From NCBI GenBank assembly GCA_037441905.1, contig JBBIRF010000006.1, forward strand, positions 18,675 through 82,674: 64,000 nt of DNA, written 5' to 3'. The stretch comes from Candidatus Aminicenantes bacterium (GTDB taxonomy: Bacteria; Acidobacteriota; Aminicenantia; Aminicenantales; CALLJL01). Position 1 is the stretch's first letter, and the number at the start of each line of letters is the position of its first letter. Both the position numbers and the translations under genes were made by a program. The notes beneath the pieces were generated by a model that was given only the letters and a program-made list of their open reading frames with translations, had not been told where the DNA came from and did not search any database. This document shows, in pieces, positions 5,178 through 38,491 of the stretch.

Positions 5178-7787
5178 ATGTATAAATGGGTTTTAAACAA
5201 GCTCTTCGGCACCAAGAACGAGCGCGACCTTAAGAAACTCCGTCCTTACGTTGCCGCCATCAACGAGCTTGAGCCCTCCGTCCGAAAGCTCACTGATGCC
5301 CAGCTCCAGGCTAAAACAGCCGAGTTTAAACAAAGGTTAGCTCAGGGGGCTTCGCTCGAAGACATCCTGATTGAGAGTTTTGCCGTTGTCCGCGAAGTAG
5401 CCCGCCGGACTATCAACATGCGACATTTCGACGTCCAGCTCATGGGCGGCATCGTCCTCCACCAAGGGAAAATTGCCGAGATGAAGACGGGTGAAGGGAA
5501 AACCCTGGTGGCCACGCTTCCTGCCTACCTTAACGCCCTCGAGGGCAAAGGCGTCCACATCGTTACGGTCAATGATTATCTGGCCAAAAGAGACGCCGAA
5601 TGGATGGGCCCAATCTATAAATTCCTGGGCCTGAGCGTTGGCGTCATCCAGCATGAAATGCCCGACGCCGACCGCAAGAAGGCCTATCTCAGCGACATCA
5701 CTTACGGGACGAACAACGAATTCGGTTTCGACTATCTGCGGGATAACATGAAGTTCAGGCTCGAAGACATGGTCCAGAGAGGCCACCATTATGCCATCGT
5801 CGACGAAGTCGACAGCATCCTGATTGACGAAGCCAGGACGCCGCTGATTATTTCCGGCCCGACCGAGGAATCAACCGACCTCTATTTCCGGATCGATAAC
5901 TTTGTCCGCCGACTCCAGAAAGACCGCCATTTCAAAGTGGACGAGAAAACCAGGACCGTCGCCCTACTCGAAGAAGGCGTGGCCGAGGCCGAAAAGTATT
6001 TCCGTGTTCCCAACCTCTACGACCTGGCATACATGGACCTTGTTCACCATATTAACCAGGCTCTCAAAGCTCATCATCTGTTTAAACGGGACGTCGATTA
6101 TATGGTCAAAGACGGCAAGGTCATCATCGTCGACGAGTTCACTGGCCGGTTAATGCCCGGCCGCCGTTATAGCGACGGCCTCCATCAGGCCCTCGAGGCC
6201 AAAGAAAGAGTGAGGGTAGAACAGGAATACCAGACCTTAGCCTCGGTCACTTTTCAGAACTATTTCCGGATGTATAAAAAGCTCGCCGGGATGACCGGTA
6301 CCGCGGCCACTGAAGCCGCCGAATTTATGGCCATCTACAACCTCGACGTCGTCGAAATTCCGACGAATAAACCGCTTATCCGTTATGAATATCCTGATGT
6401 CGTCTACCGAACGGCCAAAGAAAAATGGGAGGCTGTGGTCAACGAAATCATTCAGGCGCATGAAAAAGGTCGCCCGGCCCTTGTAGGCACGGTCTCGATC
6501 GAAAAATCAGAACATCTGAGCTCCCTCCTGCGCAAGCGAGGCATTAAACATGTTGTTCTTAACGCCAAGTACCACGAACAAGAGGCCAGAATCATCGCCC
6601 AGGCAGGACGGGTCGGCGCCGTAACCATCGCCACCAACATGGCGGGACGAGGTGTTGACATCCTCCTGGGTGGTAACCCAGAATTCATGGCCAAAGAAAA
6701 CCTGCGGAAAGCCGGCATCGAACCGGAAAAAGCCTCCCCCGAGCAGTGGGAAAAAGCTCTCGAGGAAGCCCGTCGAATTACCGAAGAAGAACACAAAAAG
6801 GTAGTTTCGCTCGATGGCCTTTATGTTATCGGGACAGAACGGCACGAGAGCCGTCGCATCGACAACCAGCTCCGCGGCCGGGCTGGCCGCCAGGGCGACC
6901 CGGGCGCCTCGAAATTTTTCCTGTCTCTCGAGGACGACTTGATGCGCATCTTCGGCAGCGACCGGCTGTCGGGGCTGATGGCCCGCATCGGGATGAAGGA
7001 AGGCGTTCCGATAGAGCATAAAATGGTCTCGAAGGCTATCGAGCGGGCGCAAAAACAGGTCGAAGCCCAAAACTTCTCCATCCGCAAGCACCTGCTGGAA
7101 TACGACGACGTGATGAACAAGCAGCGGGAGACTATCTACCGGATGCGCCGCGAAATTCTTGAAGGCAAGGATATGCGCTCTTATTTTGTCGAAGTGGTGG
7201 AAAACATCCTCGACTGGCTGCTTGATACCCATGCCAACAAAGATCGGCATCCCGAAGACTGGGACCGGGAAGCCTTGCGTAATGCTATCGGGTCGCAGTT
7301 TGGCCTGGACATCGAAACCCTCGGCATCAACTGGGACGAGGTAAATTACGAGGAGCTCCGCGAGAAGATCTTGATAGCCCTGATGGCAATTTATGAAGAA
7401 AAAGAGCGCCTGCTGACCCCCGCCCGAATGCGCGAGTTCGAGAGAATAATCCTCCTCCAGGTAATAGATAGTCAGTGGAAGGACCATCTTCTAGGAATGG
7501 ATTATCTGCGGGAAGGAATCGGGCTGAGGGGTTATGGTCAGCGTGACCCGTTGGTCGAGTACAAGAAGGAAAGCTTCGAAATGTTCCAGGCCATGTTAGA
7601 CCGGATAGAGGAAGAGGCTGTCCGTTATATCTTCCTCTTTCAACCGGTCATCGTCGAGCGAGAGGAAGCTCCGAGCCGACCGACCCGCCGGCTCTTCTAC
7701 GGCGCGCCGGAACAGGCCCTCGAAAGAGCGCCCTCTTTCCGCCGCGAAGCCCGGGCTGTCATTCCCAAGAAAAGGAAAAGAAGATAA
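5178..7787 (+). CDS. secA: Preprotein translocase ATPase SecA
   Basis: [57 protein letters not shown]; no C-terminal SEC-C motif. Confidence 0.99.
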
Positions 7788-10072: not shown

Positions 10073-11797
10073 TCAGCCGCCATCCTTTTGCTCCGCGAGA
10101 AACTGAAGAATTTCTAACTCATCAGCCGGAAACCAGACCAGGGAACAGTGATAACATTTATAAACGGGAAGAAGCAGCTGATAGTTAAACGGCTTAACCA
10201 TCATCTGCAACCCGCACTGCGGGCAGGAGCTAACGGGCTTGGCCAAAGCCTGCTTTTTTGCCAGGGAAAGCGATGCCATATTTTCCTTAATTTTCTTCGC
10301 TTTGGCCTGAAGCAGGAAAGAAAACCCGACTTCCCTCCTGGCCAAAATCTTATCCATTGCCTCGAGCGCCACCAATTTTCCCCGGCAGTAAGGGCAAACC
10401 TTGATTTTAACTCCCTCATAAAAGGTTTCGGTCAACTCCCGGCCACATTGAGGGCACTTGTCGACTCGCTGGGGGTCGATGGCTTGATGACGGAAAAGTC
10501 GGTTCAGAGCTGACCTGATGCTGGCGAACTCCCCAGCTCTTCCCTCCCGATTGTCCTTAATATTTTTTACCCTTGTCCCGGGCGAAAAACCAGGCTGGGC
10601 GAGGAGGGAAGATAAAGAATAAGGCCCACCCCACCCCCGGCCGCTTTTTACCAGCCAGATTTTCTCCTCCTGGCTGTCAACACCAGGCTGAAACCACCCC
10701 GCCTCCGTCGACCACTGAGGCTCCGGCGCGCCTATTTCTTCGCTCGCTCTGGCTTGCAGGCGGGCTTTTTCTCTCAGGGCCTCTCTTTCTCTAACTTCGG
10801 CTATCAATTCACCCACTGACTTTTGGGCCATCGCTGCCAGGATTCTCAACCTCGTGAGGACAGGAGGGTGAGTGTTAAATAACTTGCTCGGCAGGCTGTC
10901 GGTAATTTCCCGGGAATCCGGCGGAACTAAGAAAAGAGGGGTGTAAAGGCTAAAATCCCCAAGAAAAGAATTGGCGACATGAGCTTTGTAAATTATCCGG
11001 CCAAGGGCTAACGGGTCGCGACTGAATTCAACCGCCGTGGCGTCAGCCAGCAGTTCTCTCTGCCTGGTTACGAGCAGGCTCAGGAAACTCATCAAGCTCA
11101 AGCTCAGCCAACCGGCCAGAGACAACAGAGGATGAATCGTTCCTCTTTTTGACCGCGACCAGAGCACATCATCCGAGCCTTCTTCTGTTTCTCGCTCCAG
11201 GGAGCTCACCAGCCGTTCATAAAAACTCACCAGGCTACAAACCAGCGTCAGAAGGTGGGTATCGCCCCTGAGAATATGACTCATTTCGTGAGCTACCGCG
11301 GCTTGCAATTCATCCCGGCTGGCTTCAGCCAGCAGCCCTTCGGTTACGCTGATTATCGGCTGGTTACCAGGACCATTCAGAGAGAAAGAATTAATGTTCC
11401 GCGAGGGAACAATATAACCTTTAACTGCAGGCACCCCTGCGGCCAGCCTCATCTCCTCCAACACGTTCTGAAAAGTAAGATGATACCGGTCCTCAGGGGC
11501 GGGCGGATACGCCTTGAGCCGCTGCAGAATAAAATTGACTCCAGCTTTCTTTGCCTGCCTGAAATTAATAAAAGTGAGCAGGCCTGTTAAAACAAGCAGA
11601 AAAGTCAGATAAGGGAGAAAAACCGCGTTTTCCCAAAAATTGAACCCCGGGGAAAAAAGCCCGACCCCGAAGAGGACTGCCGCGGAAATTAAACCTGACG
11701 TGAGGAAATAGAAGAGGAAAACGAAGAAAAATAGCCCACCAGAAATTCTTTTTTGCCGTTCTTGCCACTCCCAAAAATCAGGTTGCCTGCACTTCAA
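10073..11797 (-). CDS. M48/HtpX-like zinc metalloprotease with two C-terminal zinc ribbons
   Basis: TM helices, NSFS, VTEGLL, HEMSH, RQRELLAD, THPP; then CPQC..CPYC and CPQC..CYHC; TTG start. Confidence 0.88.
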   Translation of the reverse strand: MKCRQPDFWEWQERQKRISGGLFFFVFLFYFLTSGLISAAVLFGVGLFSPGFNFWENAVFLPYLTFLLVLTGLLTFINFRQAKKAGVNFILQRLKAYPPAPEDRYHLTFQNVLEEMRLAAGVPAVKGYIVPSRNINSFSLNGPGNQPIISVTEGLLAEASRDELQAAVAHEMSHILRGDTHLLTLVCSLVSFYERLVSSLERETEEGSDDVLWSRSKRGTIHPLLSLAGWLSLSLMSFLSLLVTRQRELLADATAVEFSRDPLALGRIIYKAHVANSFLGDFSLYTPLFLVPPDSREITDSLPSKLFNTHPPVLTRLRILAAMAQKSVGELIAEVREREALREKARLQARASEEIGAPEPQWSTEAGWFQPGVDSQEEKIWLVKSGRGWGGPYSLSSLLAQPGFSPGTRVKNIKDNREGRAGEFASIRSALNRLFRHQAIDPQRVDKCPQCGRELTETFYEGVKIKVCPYCRGKLVALEAMDKILARREVGFSFLLQAKAKKIKENMASLSLAKKQALAKPVSSCPQCGLQMMVKPFNYQLLLPVYKCYHCSLVWFPADELEILQFLAEQKDGG

Positions 11798-11861: not shown

Positions 11862-12218
11862 CTACTTAACCTCTTTAACCTGGTTATCCGGGGTGAAAAT
11901 GACGATGCGGGGAGAATAGAACTCGACCTCGCCTTCATCCAGAATAGCGTAAGCCACCACAATCAGCTTATCCCCCACTTTCGCCTTGTGGGCGGCGGCA
12001 CCGTAGACGGCGCACACCCTCGAGCCTTTTTCCCCCTTAATCAAGTAAGTAGAAAACCTTTCGCCGGTGGTCACGTTATAAACATGGACTTTTTCGTAGG
12101 GAAGGAGACCAGCAACCTGGAGCCAGGATTCGTCCAGGCAGAGGCTGCCCTCGTAATCTTTCTGGCTTATGGTGACCCTGAGTCCGTGGAGCTTAGCTTT
12201 TAAGAAAATTCGTCTCAT
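11862..12218 (-). CDS. panD: Aspartate 1-decarboxylase
   Basis: KLH, YEG/S self-cleavage site, GERFSTY, GAAAH; in the pan cluster. Confidence 0.93.
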
Positions 12219-13074
12219 CTGATGCTCCTTTGGGGAGGATTTTCACGTTATCGATAAGCCTCGTCTGGCCGCAGTAGACGGCCACGGCGATTAAACAACC
12301 TTCGTCAACCACTTCCACCGGCGTGAGGTTTTCCGGGTGAACGATTTCGACATAATCAATCTTCAATTTCGGTTCGGCCTTGATTACCTTCTCTATTTGT
12401 GTCTTGATGGCCTCAGCCTTGTTTTCGCCCGAGGCGACCAGCCTGGCAGCCTGCTCTAAGCTCCGCGGAATGGCCAGGGCTGCCTGCCTTTCTTCCGGGC
12501 TGAGATAGGCGTTACGAGAACTCAAAGCCAGGCCGTCCTCATCCCGAACGACCGGCAGGACCTTGATTTTAACGTCCAGGTTAAGGTCTTTCACCATTTG
12601 CTGGATGATGACAGCTTGCTGGGCGTCTTTCTGGCCGAAATAAGCCAGGTCAGGCGAAACGATGTTGAACAATTTCAGGACGACCGTGGCTACCCCCCTG
12701 AAGTGACCGGGACGGCTCCGGCCGCAAAGGACATCCTGAAGCTCGGTCACCTCCACATAGGTCTTAAAACCGGGAGGATACATCTCCTCAGCCGAGGGAT
12801 AAAACAAGTAATCCACCCCTTCCGCCTCAAGCAAGGCTCGGTCTCGGCCTAAGTCTCGTGGATAGCGGTTGAAATCTTCCTTGGGGCCAAATTGAATAGG
12901 GTTGACAAAAATGCTAACTACAGTTACCGCGGCTTCGCCTTTAGCGGCCCGGACGAGACTGAGATGCCCGGCATGAAGGTAACCCATGGTGGGAACAAAC
13001 CCTATTGTCTTGCCCTGGCGCCGCCACCACCGCGCCGCTTCTTTCATGGCTTCAATTTTTTCCACTACCTGCAT
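12193..13074 (-). CDS. panC: Pantoate-beta-alanine ligase
   Basis: [47 protein letters not shown]. Confidence 0.98.
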
Positions 13075-13135: not shown

Positions 13136-14020
13136 TTAGCGAGGGCGACGACCTTTCTCCCTGGCTAACTCCCGCCGCAACAGCCGTCGCAAACCGGGTT
13201 TAAGATGGTAAGAATGTTCTTCATCGGGATAAAGCCCGGCCTTTACTTCGCGCGCATAGTTCAAGAAAGCTTCTCTGATGAGGGTGCCCAGCTCAGCATA
13301 TTTTTTAACAAACTTGGGCAAAGAGCCATCGGTTAAACCCAGCAGGTCATGAAAAACCAGCACTTGACCGTCGCAGAAACGGCCGGCGCCGATGCCGATC
13401 GTCGGGATGCTAAGTTCTTTCGTGATTACTTCAGCCAACTCCTCAGGGATGCATTCGAGAACCACTGAAAAAGCGCCGGCTCGCTCAAGCGCTTTAGCCT
13501 CTTCGAGAATTCTCCTGGCTTCTTGAATTTCTCCGCCACGCATCCGGTACTGTCCGAAACGATGGATTGACTGCGGGGTTAATCCCACGTGCCCCATCAC
13601 GGGAATTTCCGCCTCCACCAGGGCTTCGACGGTCCGCAGCCGGCGGGAGGAAGCGCCTTCTATTTTTACCGCCTTGGCGCCAGCTTCCTTGACGAAACGG
13701 GAAGCATTTCGAATCGTGTCCTCTTCGGAAAGATGAAAGGAAAAATAGGGCATGTCACCTACGACCAGGGCCCGGCGAACCGCTCTGGCCACAGCCCTGG
13801 TATGGTGCAGCATCTCTTCCATCGTTACGGGTAGAGTTGTTTCATAGCCAAGGACCACCATACCCAGGGAGTCTCCGACGAGGATAATATCCACGCCGGC
13901 CTCCTCGGCCAACCGTGCCCCGGGAAAATCATAGGCGGTAACCGCCACAATCTTTTCGCCCGAGGTTTTCTTAGCCTTTAGCCAGGGGATAGTTACAGGA
14001 GGGTTTGGCTCTTGAGACAT
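13136..14020 (-). CDS. panB: 3-methyl-2-oxobutanoate hydroxymethyltransferase
   Basis: TAYD, ILVGDSLGM, GDMP, VKIEG, MGHVGLTPQS, IGIGAG..CDGQVLV. Confidence 0.98.
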   Translation of the reverse strand: MSQEPNPPVTIPWLKAKKTSGEKIVAVTAYDFPGARLAEEAGVDIILVGDSLGMVVLGYETTLPVTMEEMLHHTRAVARAVRRALVVGDMPYFSFHLSEEDTIRNASRFVKEAGAKAVKIEGASSRRLRTVEALVEAEIPVMGHVGLTPQSIHRFGQYRMRGGEIQEARRILEEAKALERAGAFSVVLECIPEELAEVITKELSIPTIGIGAGRFCDGQVLVFHDLLGLTDGSLPKFVKKYAELGTLIREAFLNYAREVKAGLYPDEEHSYHLKPGLRRLLRRELAREKGRRPR

Positions 14021-14034
14021 TTTTCTTCCTTTCT

Positions 14035-14103
14035 CCCCATCTCGCCTGAAAAATCGAGATTGAGGTAAAGTCTTTTTCTTCCCGGAATTTGTGTCCTCCC
14101 GGG
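14035..14103 (-). ncRNA. Two tandem hairpins upstream of panB (candidate pan-motif-like cis element)
   Basis: Minus strand CCCGGGA/TTCCGGG stem, then CCTC-(A)-ATCTCG/CGAGAT-GGGG stem with a 5' bulged A ending just before the panB SD. Confidence 0.35.
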
Positions 14104-14107
14104 AGGT

Positions 14108-14758
14108 TTATTTCTGGCCGTAACTCGAAGGGACATAATAAAGATGACCCTTTTTCAAGTTTTTAATCTGACGAATAATATCCGCCAATTCAGCCTCGTT
14201 GGTCAAATCGAGGTCGTCAGACTTGATGACGAGAAGAGGTGTCGCCTGGTAATTAAAAAAGAAATAATCGAAAGCTTGCAGCAAGTCGCTTAAATATCTC
14301 TCGGTTATATTTTTTTCAAGCTCGTTCCCCTCCCGGGCAATTCTCTTGAGTAAAGTCGGCAGCGAAATTTGTAAGTAAATTGCCAGGTCTGGCTTGGGAA
14401 TCCTTTCGGCTAAAATGGCAAAGATTTTTTCATAGACCAGGAGCTCGTCGTCAGTCAGGGTTTGATAGGCATAAATTTTGTCTTTTTCAAAAAGATAGTC
14501 GCAGATTATTCTCTCGGCAAAAAGGTCTCTCTGGCCGAGTCTCACCTGCTGATGATACCGATTAACCAGAAAGACCAGCTGCGCCAGGAAAGCTGCTCCT
14601 TCTTTTTCTTCGTAAAAATCCCGCAGATAAGGGTTATCTTTCGGGTCAAGCACCAGCCGACCGTTCAGGAGTCTTGCCATGACCTGGGCGAAGCGAGTTT
14701 TATGACTATGAGGCACGCCTTCGATGGCGATGTGCCGGAAGGGAATCTCTTCTTTCAT
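14108..14758 (-). CDS. Deoxynucleoside-kinase-family protein with degenerate catalytic motifs
   Basis: IAIEG, NPYL..FY, CDYLFEKD, PDLAIYLQ patterns; P-loop reads GVPHSHKT and LID reads RIAREGNELE. Confidence 0.85.
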   Translation of the reverse strand: MKEEIPFRHIAIEGVPHSHKTRFAQVMARLLNGRLVLDPKDNPYLRDFYEEKEGAAFLAQLVFLVNRYHQQVRLGQRDLFAERIICDYLFEKDKIYAYQTLTDDELLVYEKIFAILAERIPKPDLAIYLQISLPTLLKRIAREGNELEKNITERYLSDLLQAFDYFFFNYQATPLLVIKSDDLDLTNEAELADIIRQIKNLKKGHLYYVPSSYGQK

Positions 14759-26317: not shown

Positions 26318-26394
26318 CGGGACGTGGCGCAGCCTGGTAGCGCACATGCTTGGGGTGCATGGGGTCGGCGGTTCAAATCCGCCCGTCCCGACCA
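26318..26394 (+). tRNA. tRNA-Pro (GGG)
   Basis: Acceptor CGGGACG/CGTCCCG, anticodon arm CATGC-TTGGGGT-GCATG, T-loop GGTTCAAATCC, encoded CCA. Confidence 0.98.
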
Positions 26395-38416: not shown

Positions 38417-38491
38417 CGGGGAGTAGCGCAGCCTGGTTAGCGCACAGCGTTCGGGACGCTGGGGTCATGGGTTCGAATCCCATCTCCCCGA
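38417..38491 (+). tRNA. tRNA-Pro (CGG)
   Basis: Acceptor CGGGGAG/CTCCCCG, anticodon arm CAGCG-TTCGGGA-CGCTG, GGTTCGAATCC; CCA not encoded; TTGAGG-N17-TATAAT upstream. Confidence 0.97.

Follow-up and report, generated by a model that had tools for sequence, protein, structure and literature searches.

A conserved deoxynucleoside kinase-like protein with an altered P-loop at the head of the pantothenate genes of Candidatus Aminicenantes

A 64,000 nucleotide stretch of the genome of a Candidatus Aminicenantes bacterium (assembly GCA_037441905.1, contig JBBIRF010000006.1, positions 18,675 to 82,674), referred to here as the window, carries a gene for a protein of the deoxynucleoside kinase (dNK) family. 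The gene lies next to the pantothenate synthesis genes panB, panC and panD. On the reverse strand the order is PspC-domain gene, dNK-like gene, panB, panC, panD and M48 peptidase gene. The dNK-like gene is an uninterrupted reading frame of 216 residues, with a strong Shine-Dalgarno sequence (GAGGAGG) 4 nt 5' of its ATG. A preliminary description made from the sequence had proposed that this gene heads the pan genes and encodes a catalytically dead pseudokinase. Its placement is confirmed, with panB, panC and panD following on the same strand. The protein combines strong conservation with an altered ATP-binding loop throughout the class and is therefore a conserved, remodelled working protein rather than the product of a decaying gene. 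By sequence comparison, the gene is the Aminicenantes orthologue of a dNK-fold P-loop subfamily ancestrally linked to folK and panBCD.

Motifs and fold of the kinase-like protein

The protein matches PF01712 (dNK) at 89.8 bits against a cut-off of 27. The match covers profile positions 1–201 of 203, in agreement with the earlier statement that the frame is otherwise intact and full length. No NCBIfam model exceeded its own cut-off for this protein. An AlphaFold2 model built from 119 sequences has a predicted local distance difference test score (pLDDT) of 91 and a predicted template modelling score (pTM) of 0.88, and predicts the dNK fold with confidence. The 50 best Foldseek matches are chains of deoxyadenosine kinase (dAK), deoxycytidine kinase (dCK), deoxyguanosine kinase (dGK), Dm-dNK and NDUFA10, with TMq values of 0.64–0.80; those to the dAK, dCK and dGK structures are 0.70–0.80.

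The bacterial and eukaryotic dNKs used for comparison (Mycoplasma mycoides dAK, 2JAQ/2JAS/2JAT; Giardia dAK, 8PUU; human dCK; dGK) share the fold and the hidden Markov model family of the window protein. Residues Q60, R67, D87, Y49 and E148 align to the base- and sugar-site residues of dAK, with Q60 and R67 showing the Q-x7-R spacing of dAK and dCK. Following the published dCK, dGK and dNK structures, Q60, R67 and D87 are taken here to serve in base recognition, and Y49 and E148 to contact the 3'-OH of the sugar.

Unlike these enzymes, the window protein lacks two of the three Walker A glycines. Its P-loop, GVPHSHKT, keeps the Gly at position 1, the Lys at position 7 and the Thr at position 8, but both the fourth and the sixth position have His where the motif has Gly, and the loop does not fit GxxGxGK[ST]. 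The LID segment also differs, since R139 and E148 are kept but the canonical Arg143 is Glu and Arg145 is Asn; with an extra arginine at 142, the segment does not fit RxxxRxR. Asp replaces the catalytic Glu, and the E-R pair of A81-E82-R83 is shifted by one residue from the ERS motif (DRT in 2JAQ). In HMMER alignments GVPHSHKT, LDP and RIAREGNELE stand opposite GTVGAGKS, EP and RIkkRGRseE of the M. mycoides enzyme, and opposite GLIGAGKT, EP and RIkeRsRncE of the Giardia enzyme.

Codon reading and alignment to the solved kinases thus agree on the three deviations noted in the preliminary description. Their use there as marks of a dead site holds only in part. The changes are real, but an Asp at the catalytic Glu position is, by comparison with relatives, not diagnostic of catalytic loss, because it is shared by 34 of 133 representative relatives, many of them with a fully canonical P-loop. 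Likewise, the LID of the clade is weakened and not empty: of the 201 Aminicenantes sequences used for residue frequencies, 195 have R139 and 186 are basic at position 142.

Conservation in Aminicenantes and the folK- and pan-linked subfamily

Synteny and the hairpin described below were followed in 80 species-level Aminicenantes loci. The order dNK-like gene, panB, panC is found in every one of these that reaches far enough, and the genes outside the block vary. The PspC-domain gene opens the conserved block, 36 nt upstream of the dNK-like gene in the window, and is at this place in 61 of the 80 loci, some of which have no upstream sequence. Searching the window, and 5 kb to each side in the 80 loci, gave no folK and no second dNK gene. 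The reading frame is intact in all 80 species genomes and in more than 100 metagenome stretches, and mean column identity is 74% over 17 spread Aminicenantes members.

The ratio of nonsynonymous to synonymous substitution rates (dN/dS) was computed against a 95%-identical relative, at a dS of about 0.5–0.9. It is 0.043 for the dNK-like gene (dS 0.66) and 0.042 for the PspC-domain gene, compared with 0.118 for panB, 0.110 for panC and 0.073 for panD. Pairwise ratios among the 80 species loci are uninformative because synonymous sites are saturated; in the deeper species pairs the dN of the dNK-like gene is below those of PanB and PanC. The motif changes are shared by orthologues across the class, in a gene under strong purifying selection, and the low ratio and class-wide conservation exclude the alternative, named in the preliminary description as a refuting condition, that this copy is simply decaying.

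A deviant P-loop is present in all 120 of the closest protein clusters. Among the 200 Aminicenantes sequences that cover the loop, G14 and K20 are invariant and position 4 is basic (K/R/H) in 199. Position 6 is Gly in only 52; it is otherwise Gln (99), Arg (26), His (11), Lys (9), Tyr (2) or Asn (1). Position 8 is neither Thr nor Ser in 12 sequences. With K/R/H at residue 17, often Q/R/K/H at 19, K20, and K/R at 22 in most sequences, the P-loop region is unusually basic. No Arg is found at LID position 143 or 145 in the clade. D38, Y49, Q60 and D87 are invariant in the 201 sequences, with E/D82 in 199, E148 in 192 and R83 in 189. The invariance of Q60, R67 and D87 extends across the Aminicenantes and their canonical Acidobacteriota relatives together.

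An exhaustive HMMER search returned 3,910 relatives. The nearest outside the Aminicenantes have 33–48% identity and mostly a canonical loop of the GPIGVGKT type. Maximum-likelihood analysis groups the Aminicenantes into a single clade (SH-aLRT 99), embedded among Acidobacteriota sequences of the canonical kind. The folK and/or pan genes adjoin the dNK gene, or are near it, in all eight distinct non-crown contexts inspected. The gene order is dNK-panB-panC-panD in Candidatus Fischerbacteria (L081), folK-dNK-panB-panC-panD in L083 and dNK-panBCD in L210; in L211 the gene for HPPK (FolK) overlaps the dNK gene by 4 nt, and in L086/L087 an HPPK-dNK fusion is followed by panC. The dNK gene is about 4 kb from panB in L082 and about 1 kb from it in L212. 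In the deep Aminicenantes lineage L084/L085, which has the P-loop GLVKSGKT, the order is glyA-dNK-panBCD and the dNK gene overlaps panB by 14 nt (5671-5684). This lineage also has a 15-residue insert after the Asp motif, with glyA (SHMT) upstream and a PfkB kinase gene after panD. Fusions of HPPK and dNK make up five representative clusters. Either such a fusion or a folK directly ahead of the dNK-like gene is seen for P0153, P0154, P0168, P0212 and P0189 and in L086, L087, L211 and L083, with canonical P-loops.

The canonical FolK- and Pan-linked relatives, such as P0127 from Fischerbacteria and the fusions P0153, P0154 and P0168, thus hold the same place before panBCD or after folK. They keep GPIGVGKT, and most keep the LID arginines, which the Aminicenantes proteins do not. 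The Aminicenantes neighbourhood is unlike theirs in having no folK and a PspC-domain gene upstream; in the canonical lineages folK, glyA or unrelated genes are at that place. Because canonical GPIGVGKT relatives occupy it too, the place ahead of the pan genes predates the motif loss and is inherited from canonical ancestors. For the same reason, with some of these relatives being FolK-fused, it does not speak for regulation by the degenerate form.

The subfamily does not conserve the ERS Arg (position 82 in P0001 numbering, compared across P0122-P0271; Gln in 35 and Arg in 20 of 133), which is variable even in members with a perfect P-loop. The annotation of subfamily members as deoxyadenosine or deoxycytidine kinases may therefore be questionable. 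A functional link between folK and panB has been published (PMC4814558). The literature search found no report of a dNK link to folK or panB or of HPPK-dNK fusions, no assay of a subfamily member, and nothing specific on bacterial dNK pseudokinases or on pantothenate metabolism in Aminicenantes. One further relative, P0255 (769 aa), is a fusion of calcineurin-like phosphoesterase, TIR and dNK domains, an architecture that looks like that of an anti-phage defence protein, not a salvage enzyme.

The maximum-likelihood tree gives a polarity to the motif changes. The canonical GPIGVGKT comes first. It is followed, in neighbouring lineages, by loops with a basic position 4 and an intact GxxxxGK[ST] (GPLRVGKT, GPLKAGKT, GLVKSGKT and, in basal Aminicenantes, GILKSGKT), and then by crown groups without the last Gly (GxPKSQKT, GVFRSRKT and the GVPHSHKT of the window). 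On a species tree of 74 species, built from PanB, PanC and the dNK-like protein without its P-loop columns, the Gly at position 6 was lost at least four times, three of these being forced by well-supported branches, and the position then shifted among Gln, Arg, Lys, His, Tyr and Asn. The Mg-binding Thr/Ser at position 8 was also lost at least four times, to Ala, Gly, Asn, Lys or Arg. The window falls in an 8-species Q/H/Y clade, in which the sub-branch with GVPHSHKT and GVPHSYKT is the most derived, lacking both a Lys or Arg at position 4 and a Gly at position 6.

The changes in the P-loop and the LID go together. In full-length representatives, K/R/H at position 4 is accompanied by the absence of Arg from both LID 143 and 145 in 12 out of 12, and Gly at position 4 by at least one Arg at these sites in 92 out of 105. 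An exchange of charge between P-loop and LID is suggested by these alignments; it represents one or two evolutionary events and is not statistical proof.

The panB leader hairpin and neighbouring genes

The features of the locus are collected in Table 1. The preliminary description had referred to hairpins downstream of the dNK-like gene, and of these the one proximal to panB is conserved but the first is not conserved beyond the closest relative. This first hairpin is found in L208 and is absent from L001, L002 and others; it has no U-tract and therefore is not a terminator by scan. No usable promoter or terminator was found by scanning between the dNK-like gene and panB. The whole 101-nt spacer folds only marginally better than shuffled sequences (z = -1.8), and the folding signal is confined to the panB-proximal hairpin.

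Table 1. Features of the pan locus, numbered from the first nucleotide of the window
Feature	Position	Strand	Evidence
dNK-like ORF (open reading frame), 216 aa plus stop	14108..14758	(-)	PF01712; AlphaFold2 model; Foldseek; dN/dS
Altered P-loop GVPHSHKT, residues 14-21	14696..14719	(-)	Codon reading; alignment to GTVGAGKS and GLIGAGKT
LDP, residues 37-39 (Asp38 aligned with the catalytic Glu)	14642..14650	(-)	Codon reading; alignment
LID segment RIAREGNELE, residues 139-148	14315..14344	(-)	Codon reading; alignments
First hairpin, just after the dNK-like stop codon	14080..14104	(-)	Folding
Conserved panB-leader hairpin, 46 nt, GACUUUACCUCAAUCUCG-loop-CGAGAUGGGGAGAAAGGA, bulged A	14027..14072	(-)	Folding; 79/80 loci; covariation
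panB, ketopantoate hydroxymethyltransferase	13136..14020	(-)	PF02548, E 1.8e-112
panC, pantoate-beta-alanine ligase	12193..13074	(-)	PF02569, E 7.3e-114
panD, aspartate 1-decarboxylase, overlaps the end of panC	11862..12218	(-)	PF02261, E 7.8e-39
PspC-domain small membrane protein, 65 aa	14795..14992	(-)	PF04024, E 9.4e-24

Of the 80 species loci, 79 have the panB-leader hairpin, with one copy per locus and one in the window. The arms hardly vary, and compensatory changes are found in the inner stem. Six pairs have double changes over 51 cells, 96.7% of the cells are paired, and none of 500 shuffles equalled this. A bulged A (A12) lies between a 4-bp stem and a 6–7-bp stem. The 3' arm enters the AAAGGA ribosome-binding region of panB, and a distal CUUU can pair with AAAGGA.

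A pattern scan of metagenomes that did not depend on the protein found 120 stretches with the hairpin. In all of the 113 with room for it, panB is directly downstream, and the dNK-like gene precedes the hairpin in 112 of these. In the exception, L161, a 334-aa Cys-rich ferredoxin-like ORF is ahead of the hairpin and panB in place of the dNK-like gene (about 1268-2352 after orientation). Shorter bulged-A hairpins ending in GGGGAGAAAGGAG precede panB in L081 and L083, which have canonical kinases. In L082, whose kinase gene is 4 kb away, panB is preceded by a comparable bulged-A hairpin with another 3' end, GGGCAGAGGAG. No hairpin was found before panB in the deep lineage L084/L085. A restriction of the hairpin to the degenerate kinase is rejected, as variants occur beside canonical or non-adjacent kinases. 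That it marks a wider regulon is rejected within the limits of the scan, each locus having one copy and every match being at panB.

The published pan RNA motif is a hairpin with a conserved bulged A found upstream of panB, panC and panD, for which protein binding has been proposed (PMC2864571). The leader hairpin shares with this motif (RF01749; Weinberg et al. 2010) its place upstream of pan genes and its bulged-A stem. It differs in consisting of one hairpin, where most members of the pan motif have two in tandem, and in fitting no Rfam model. There was no credible intergenic Rfam match, and no pan hit at the gathering score or at E up to 10 on 13980-14140. No such element is known to have been reported from the Acidobacteriota or the Aminicenantes. 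Two tRNA genes on the forward strand, at 26318-26391 and 38417-38491, account for all Rfam matches in the window.

The M48 peptidase gene downstream of panD (10073-11797, reverse strand) has zinc-ribbon domains. It is missing in the 95%-identical relative (L208 and L209 compared), where panD is followed directly by a thioredoxin-like gene, so that the two close relatives differ by a recent gain or loss of the peptidase gene. The sequencing runs that contain the window sequence are DNA metagenomes only.

Function of the protein and its bearing on pantothenate synthesis

The reading favoured here, tentatively, is that the dNK-like protein binds nucleotides with little or no phosphotransfer. It is favoured because the donor site escapes the Walker rule inside a protein that is more constrained than the neighbouring enzymes. 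The phosphate-donor site has been remodelled through the loss of LID Arg143 and Arg145 and the fixation of a basic residue at position 4 of the P-loop; in several sub-lineages, including that of the window, the last Walker Gly was replaced by a bulky polar residue, His here. The site keeps its Lys and gains positive charge but breaks two Walker A rules of Mg-nucleoside triphosphate (Mg-NTP) binding. The presumed nucleoside-acceptor site is unchanged, with Y49, Q60, R67, D87 and E148 as well as D38 and E82-R83, and the Walker Lys is also kept. A purine or cytosine (deoxy)nucleoside moiety would still be bound in the acceptor pocket. Its phosphates would lie on the now very basic loop, as do those of a feedback-inhibitor deoxynucleoside triphosphate in true dNKs and of deoxyguanosine triphosphate (dGTP) in NDUFA10, and phosphate transfer would be poor or absent. 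The label pseudokinase is plausible for the window protein.

The dNK-fold protein NDUFA10, an accessory subunit of complex I, had been cited as a nucleotide binder with a non-enzymatic role and is a fair precedent. It binds dGTP tightly in the feedback-inhibitor mode: the nucleoside occupies the substrate site, the phosphates rest on the P-loop, and kinase activity could not be detected (PMC9226000). NDUFA10 is also matched by the window protein, in sequence as well as in fold. However, NDUFA10 keeps most of the P-loop and ERS residues and is a eukaryotic protein of a membrane complex, whereas the window protein has lost motif residues and is the product of a free-standing gene in a bacterial operon.

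Several observations weigh against a loss of phosphotransfer. The residues that correspond to the catalytic base (D38), the Mg-binding Glu (E82) and the Arg of ERS (R83) are as well conserved as they would be in a functioning enzyme. K/R142 and K149 retain positive charge in the LID. The P-loop in the AlphaFold2 model is an ordinary strand-loop-helix with a pLDDT of about 95. GxxxxGK is kept in 44 of the 74 tree species (about 60%), and Thr/Ser at position 8 in 68 of the 74, despite saturated synonymous divergence, and both positions are therefore still partly constrained. A basic P-loop with an Arg-poor LID is, moreover, the layout of active type I thymidylate kinases (TMPKs), since the catalytic Arg of TMPKs is either in the P-loop (type I, GxxRxGK[ST], as in GVDRAGKS) or in the LID (type II, GIDGSGKT) (PMC3169407). 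The dNK-like subfamily has the same mutually exclusive pattern of P-loop or LID charge. TMPKs are, however, a different family of the same fold class, and the window protein has His at the position concerned and also lacks the Walker Gly before the Lys, which TMPKs keep. The earlier claim that the protein is catalytically dead is weakened by the TMPK-like combination of basic position 4 and LID Arg loss, and by the species that keep GxxxxGK[ST].

An active (deoxy)nucleoside kinase of non-canonical layout is a close rival to the nucleotide-binding reading and has a realistic chance of being correct. Such an enzyme would act in nucleoside salvage, the role annotated for its canonical relatives, its charge being supplied from P-loop position 4, sometimes position 6, and K/R142. 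The pairing of a basic position 4 with LID Arg loss, and the division of active type I from type II TMPKs by the same swap (PMC3169407), would fit such an enzyme. So would the invariant or nearly invariant K20, D38, E/D82 and R83, the strong purifying selection and the retention of GxxxxGKT in basal and many crown Aminicenantes. However, the 12 sequences that show the pairing represent one or two evolutionary events only, and the window protein has His and not Lys/Arg at position 4, with a second His at position 6 where the Walker Gly would be. To our knowledge, no active P-loop kinase lacks that Gly. The Mg-binding Thr/Ser has also been replaced repeatedly, even by Lys or Arg, which suggests that parts of the clade can do without Mg-NTP chemistry.

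Control of pantothenate synthesis by the dNK-like protein, whether by regulation of PanB, PanC or PanD or by RNA binding as the preliminary description had it, is speculation. In its specific form this is a special case of the nucleotide-binding reading and is rather unlikely. The protein would be a ligand-sensing regulator, responding to a nucleotide or a CoA-type (coenzyme A) compound and acting either through the panB-leader hairpin, much as PyrR does, or on a Pan enzyme, as PanZ does. PyrR is an RNA-binding attenuator with an enzyme fold, and its gene heads its own operon. For binding of the leader RNA by the dNK-like protein, which by analogy with PyrR is possible, adjacency is the sole support: the gene directly precedes a covarying hairpin whose 3' arm abuts the panB ribosome-binding site. 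The co-occurrence of hairpin and gene in 112 out of 113 metagenome stretches and the unusually basic P-loop region also point this way. Enzymes of the dNK family are typically dimers. For pan motifs upstream of panB, binding of a dimeric protein has been proposed (PMC2864571). For action on an enzyme there is the precedent of PanZ, a CoA-sensing pseudoenzyme that binds CoA and inhibits PanD in enterobacteria (PMC4410942).

However, related bulged-A hairpins are found at panB beside canonical kinases (L081 and L083), with the kinase gene 4 kb away (L082) and with no kinase gene upstream (L161). The deep lineage L084/L085 has a gene overlapping panB and no hairpin. The protein has no RNA-binding domain, and co-occurrence within the clade may be simple inheritance.

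It is very unlikely that the whole FolK- and Pan-linked subfamily acts on a substrate other than a deoxynucleoside, such as a pterin or an intermediate of the CoA pathway, with the change in the donor site being a change of reaction. The presence of folK and/or pan genes at or near all eight distinct non-crown contexts, HPPK fusions in at least five representative clusters, the variable ERS Arg, which is a hallmark of true dNKs, and the published folK-panB link (PMC4814558) would be in keeping with this. However, residues of the dAK, dCK and dGK type are conserved both for the base (Q60, R67 and D87) and for the sugar (Y49 and E148), and housekeeping genes may be syntenic without a common pathway. 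A decaying pseudogene or chance ORF, for which the deviant motifs speak and nothing else does, is ruled out by the selection and conservation data (dN/dS of 0.043, column identity of 74%, intact frames in genomes and metagenomes), with the strong Shine-Dalgarno sequence and confident predicted fold also against it.

A broader proposal, itself quite unlikely, treats the FolK/PanBCD-linked dNK-fold subfamily as a sensory module for nucleotides or CoA, coupling cofactor or nucleotide status to pantothenate and folate synthesis rather than serving in salvage. The Aminicenantes form would then be a pure sensor acting on the panB leader hairpin or on a Pan enzyme, as PyrR or PanZ do. If true, this would name a protein partner for the pan-type leader RNAs. 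Control of pantothenate synthesis is known in enterobacteria, through PanZ-CoA on PanD, and the partner of pan-type leader RNAs has been a standing question since 2010; the locus provides a defined candidate pair, made up of an enzyme-fold protein and a leader hairpin that are both conserved.

Besides the protein, a variant within the known dNK family, the analysis brought out the association of dNK with FolK and Pan and the conserved panB leader hairpin. Gene order and gene fusion link a sizeable dNK-like subfamily to folK and panBCD, an association of which the literature search gave no report, and the names deoxyadenosine or deoxycytidine kinase may therefore be wrong or incomplete for hundreds of genomes. 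The natural series from the canonical loop through GxxKxGKT to GxxKxQKT and GxxHxHKT, under strong purifying selection, could serve for the study of what phosphotransfer requires of the P-loop.

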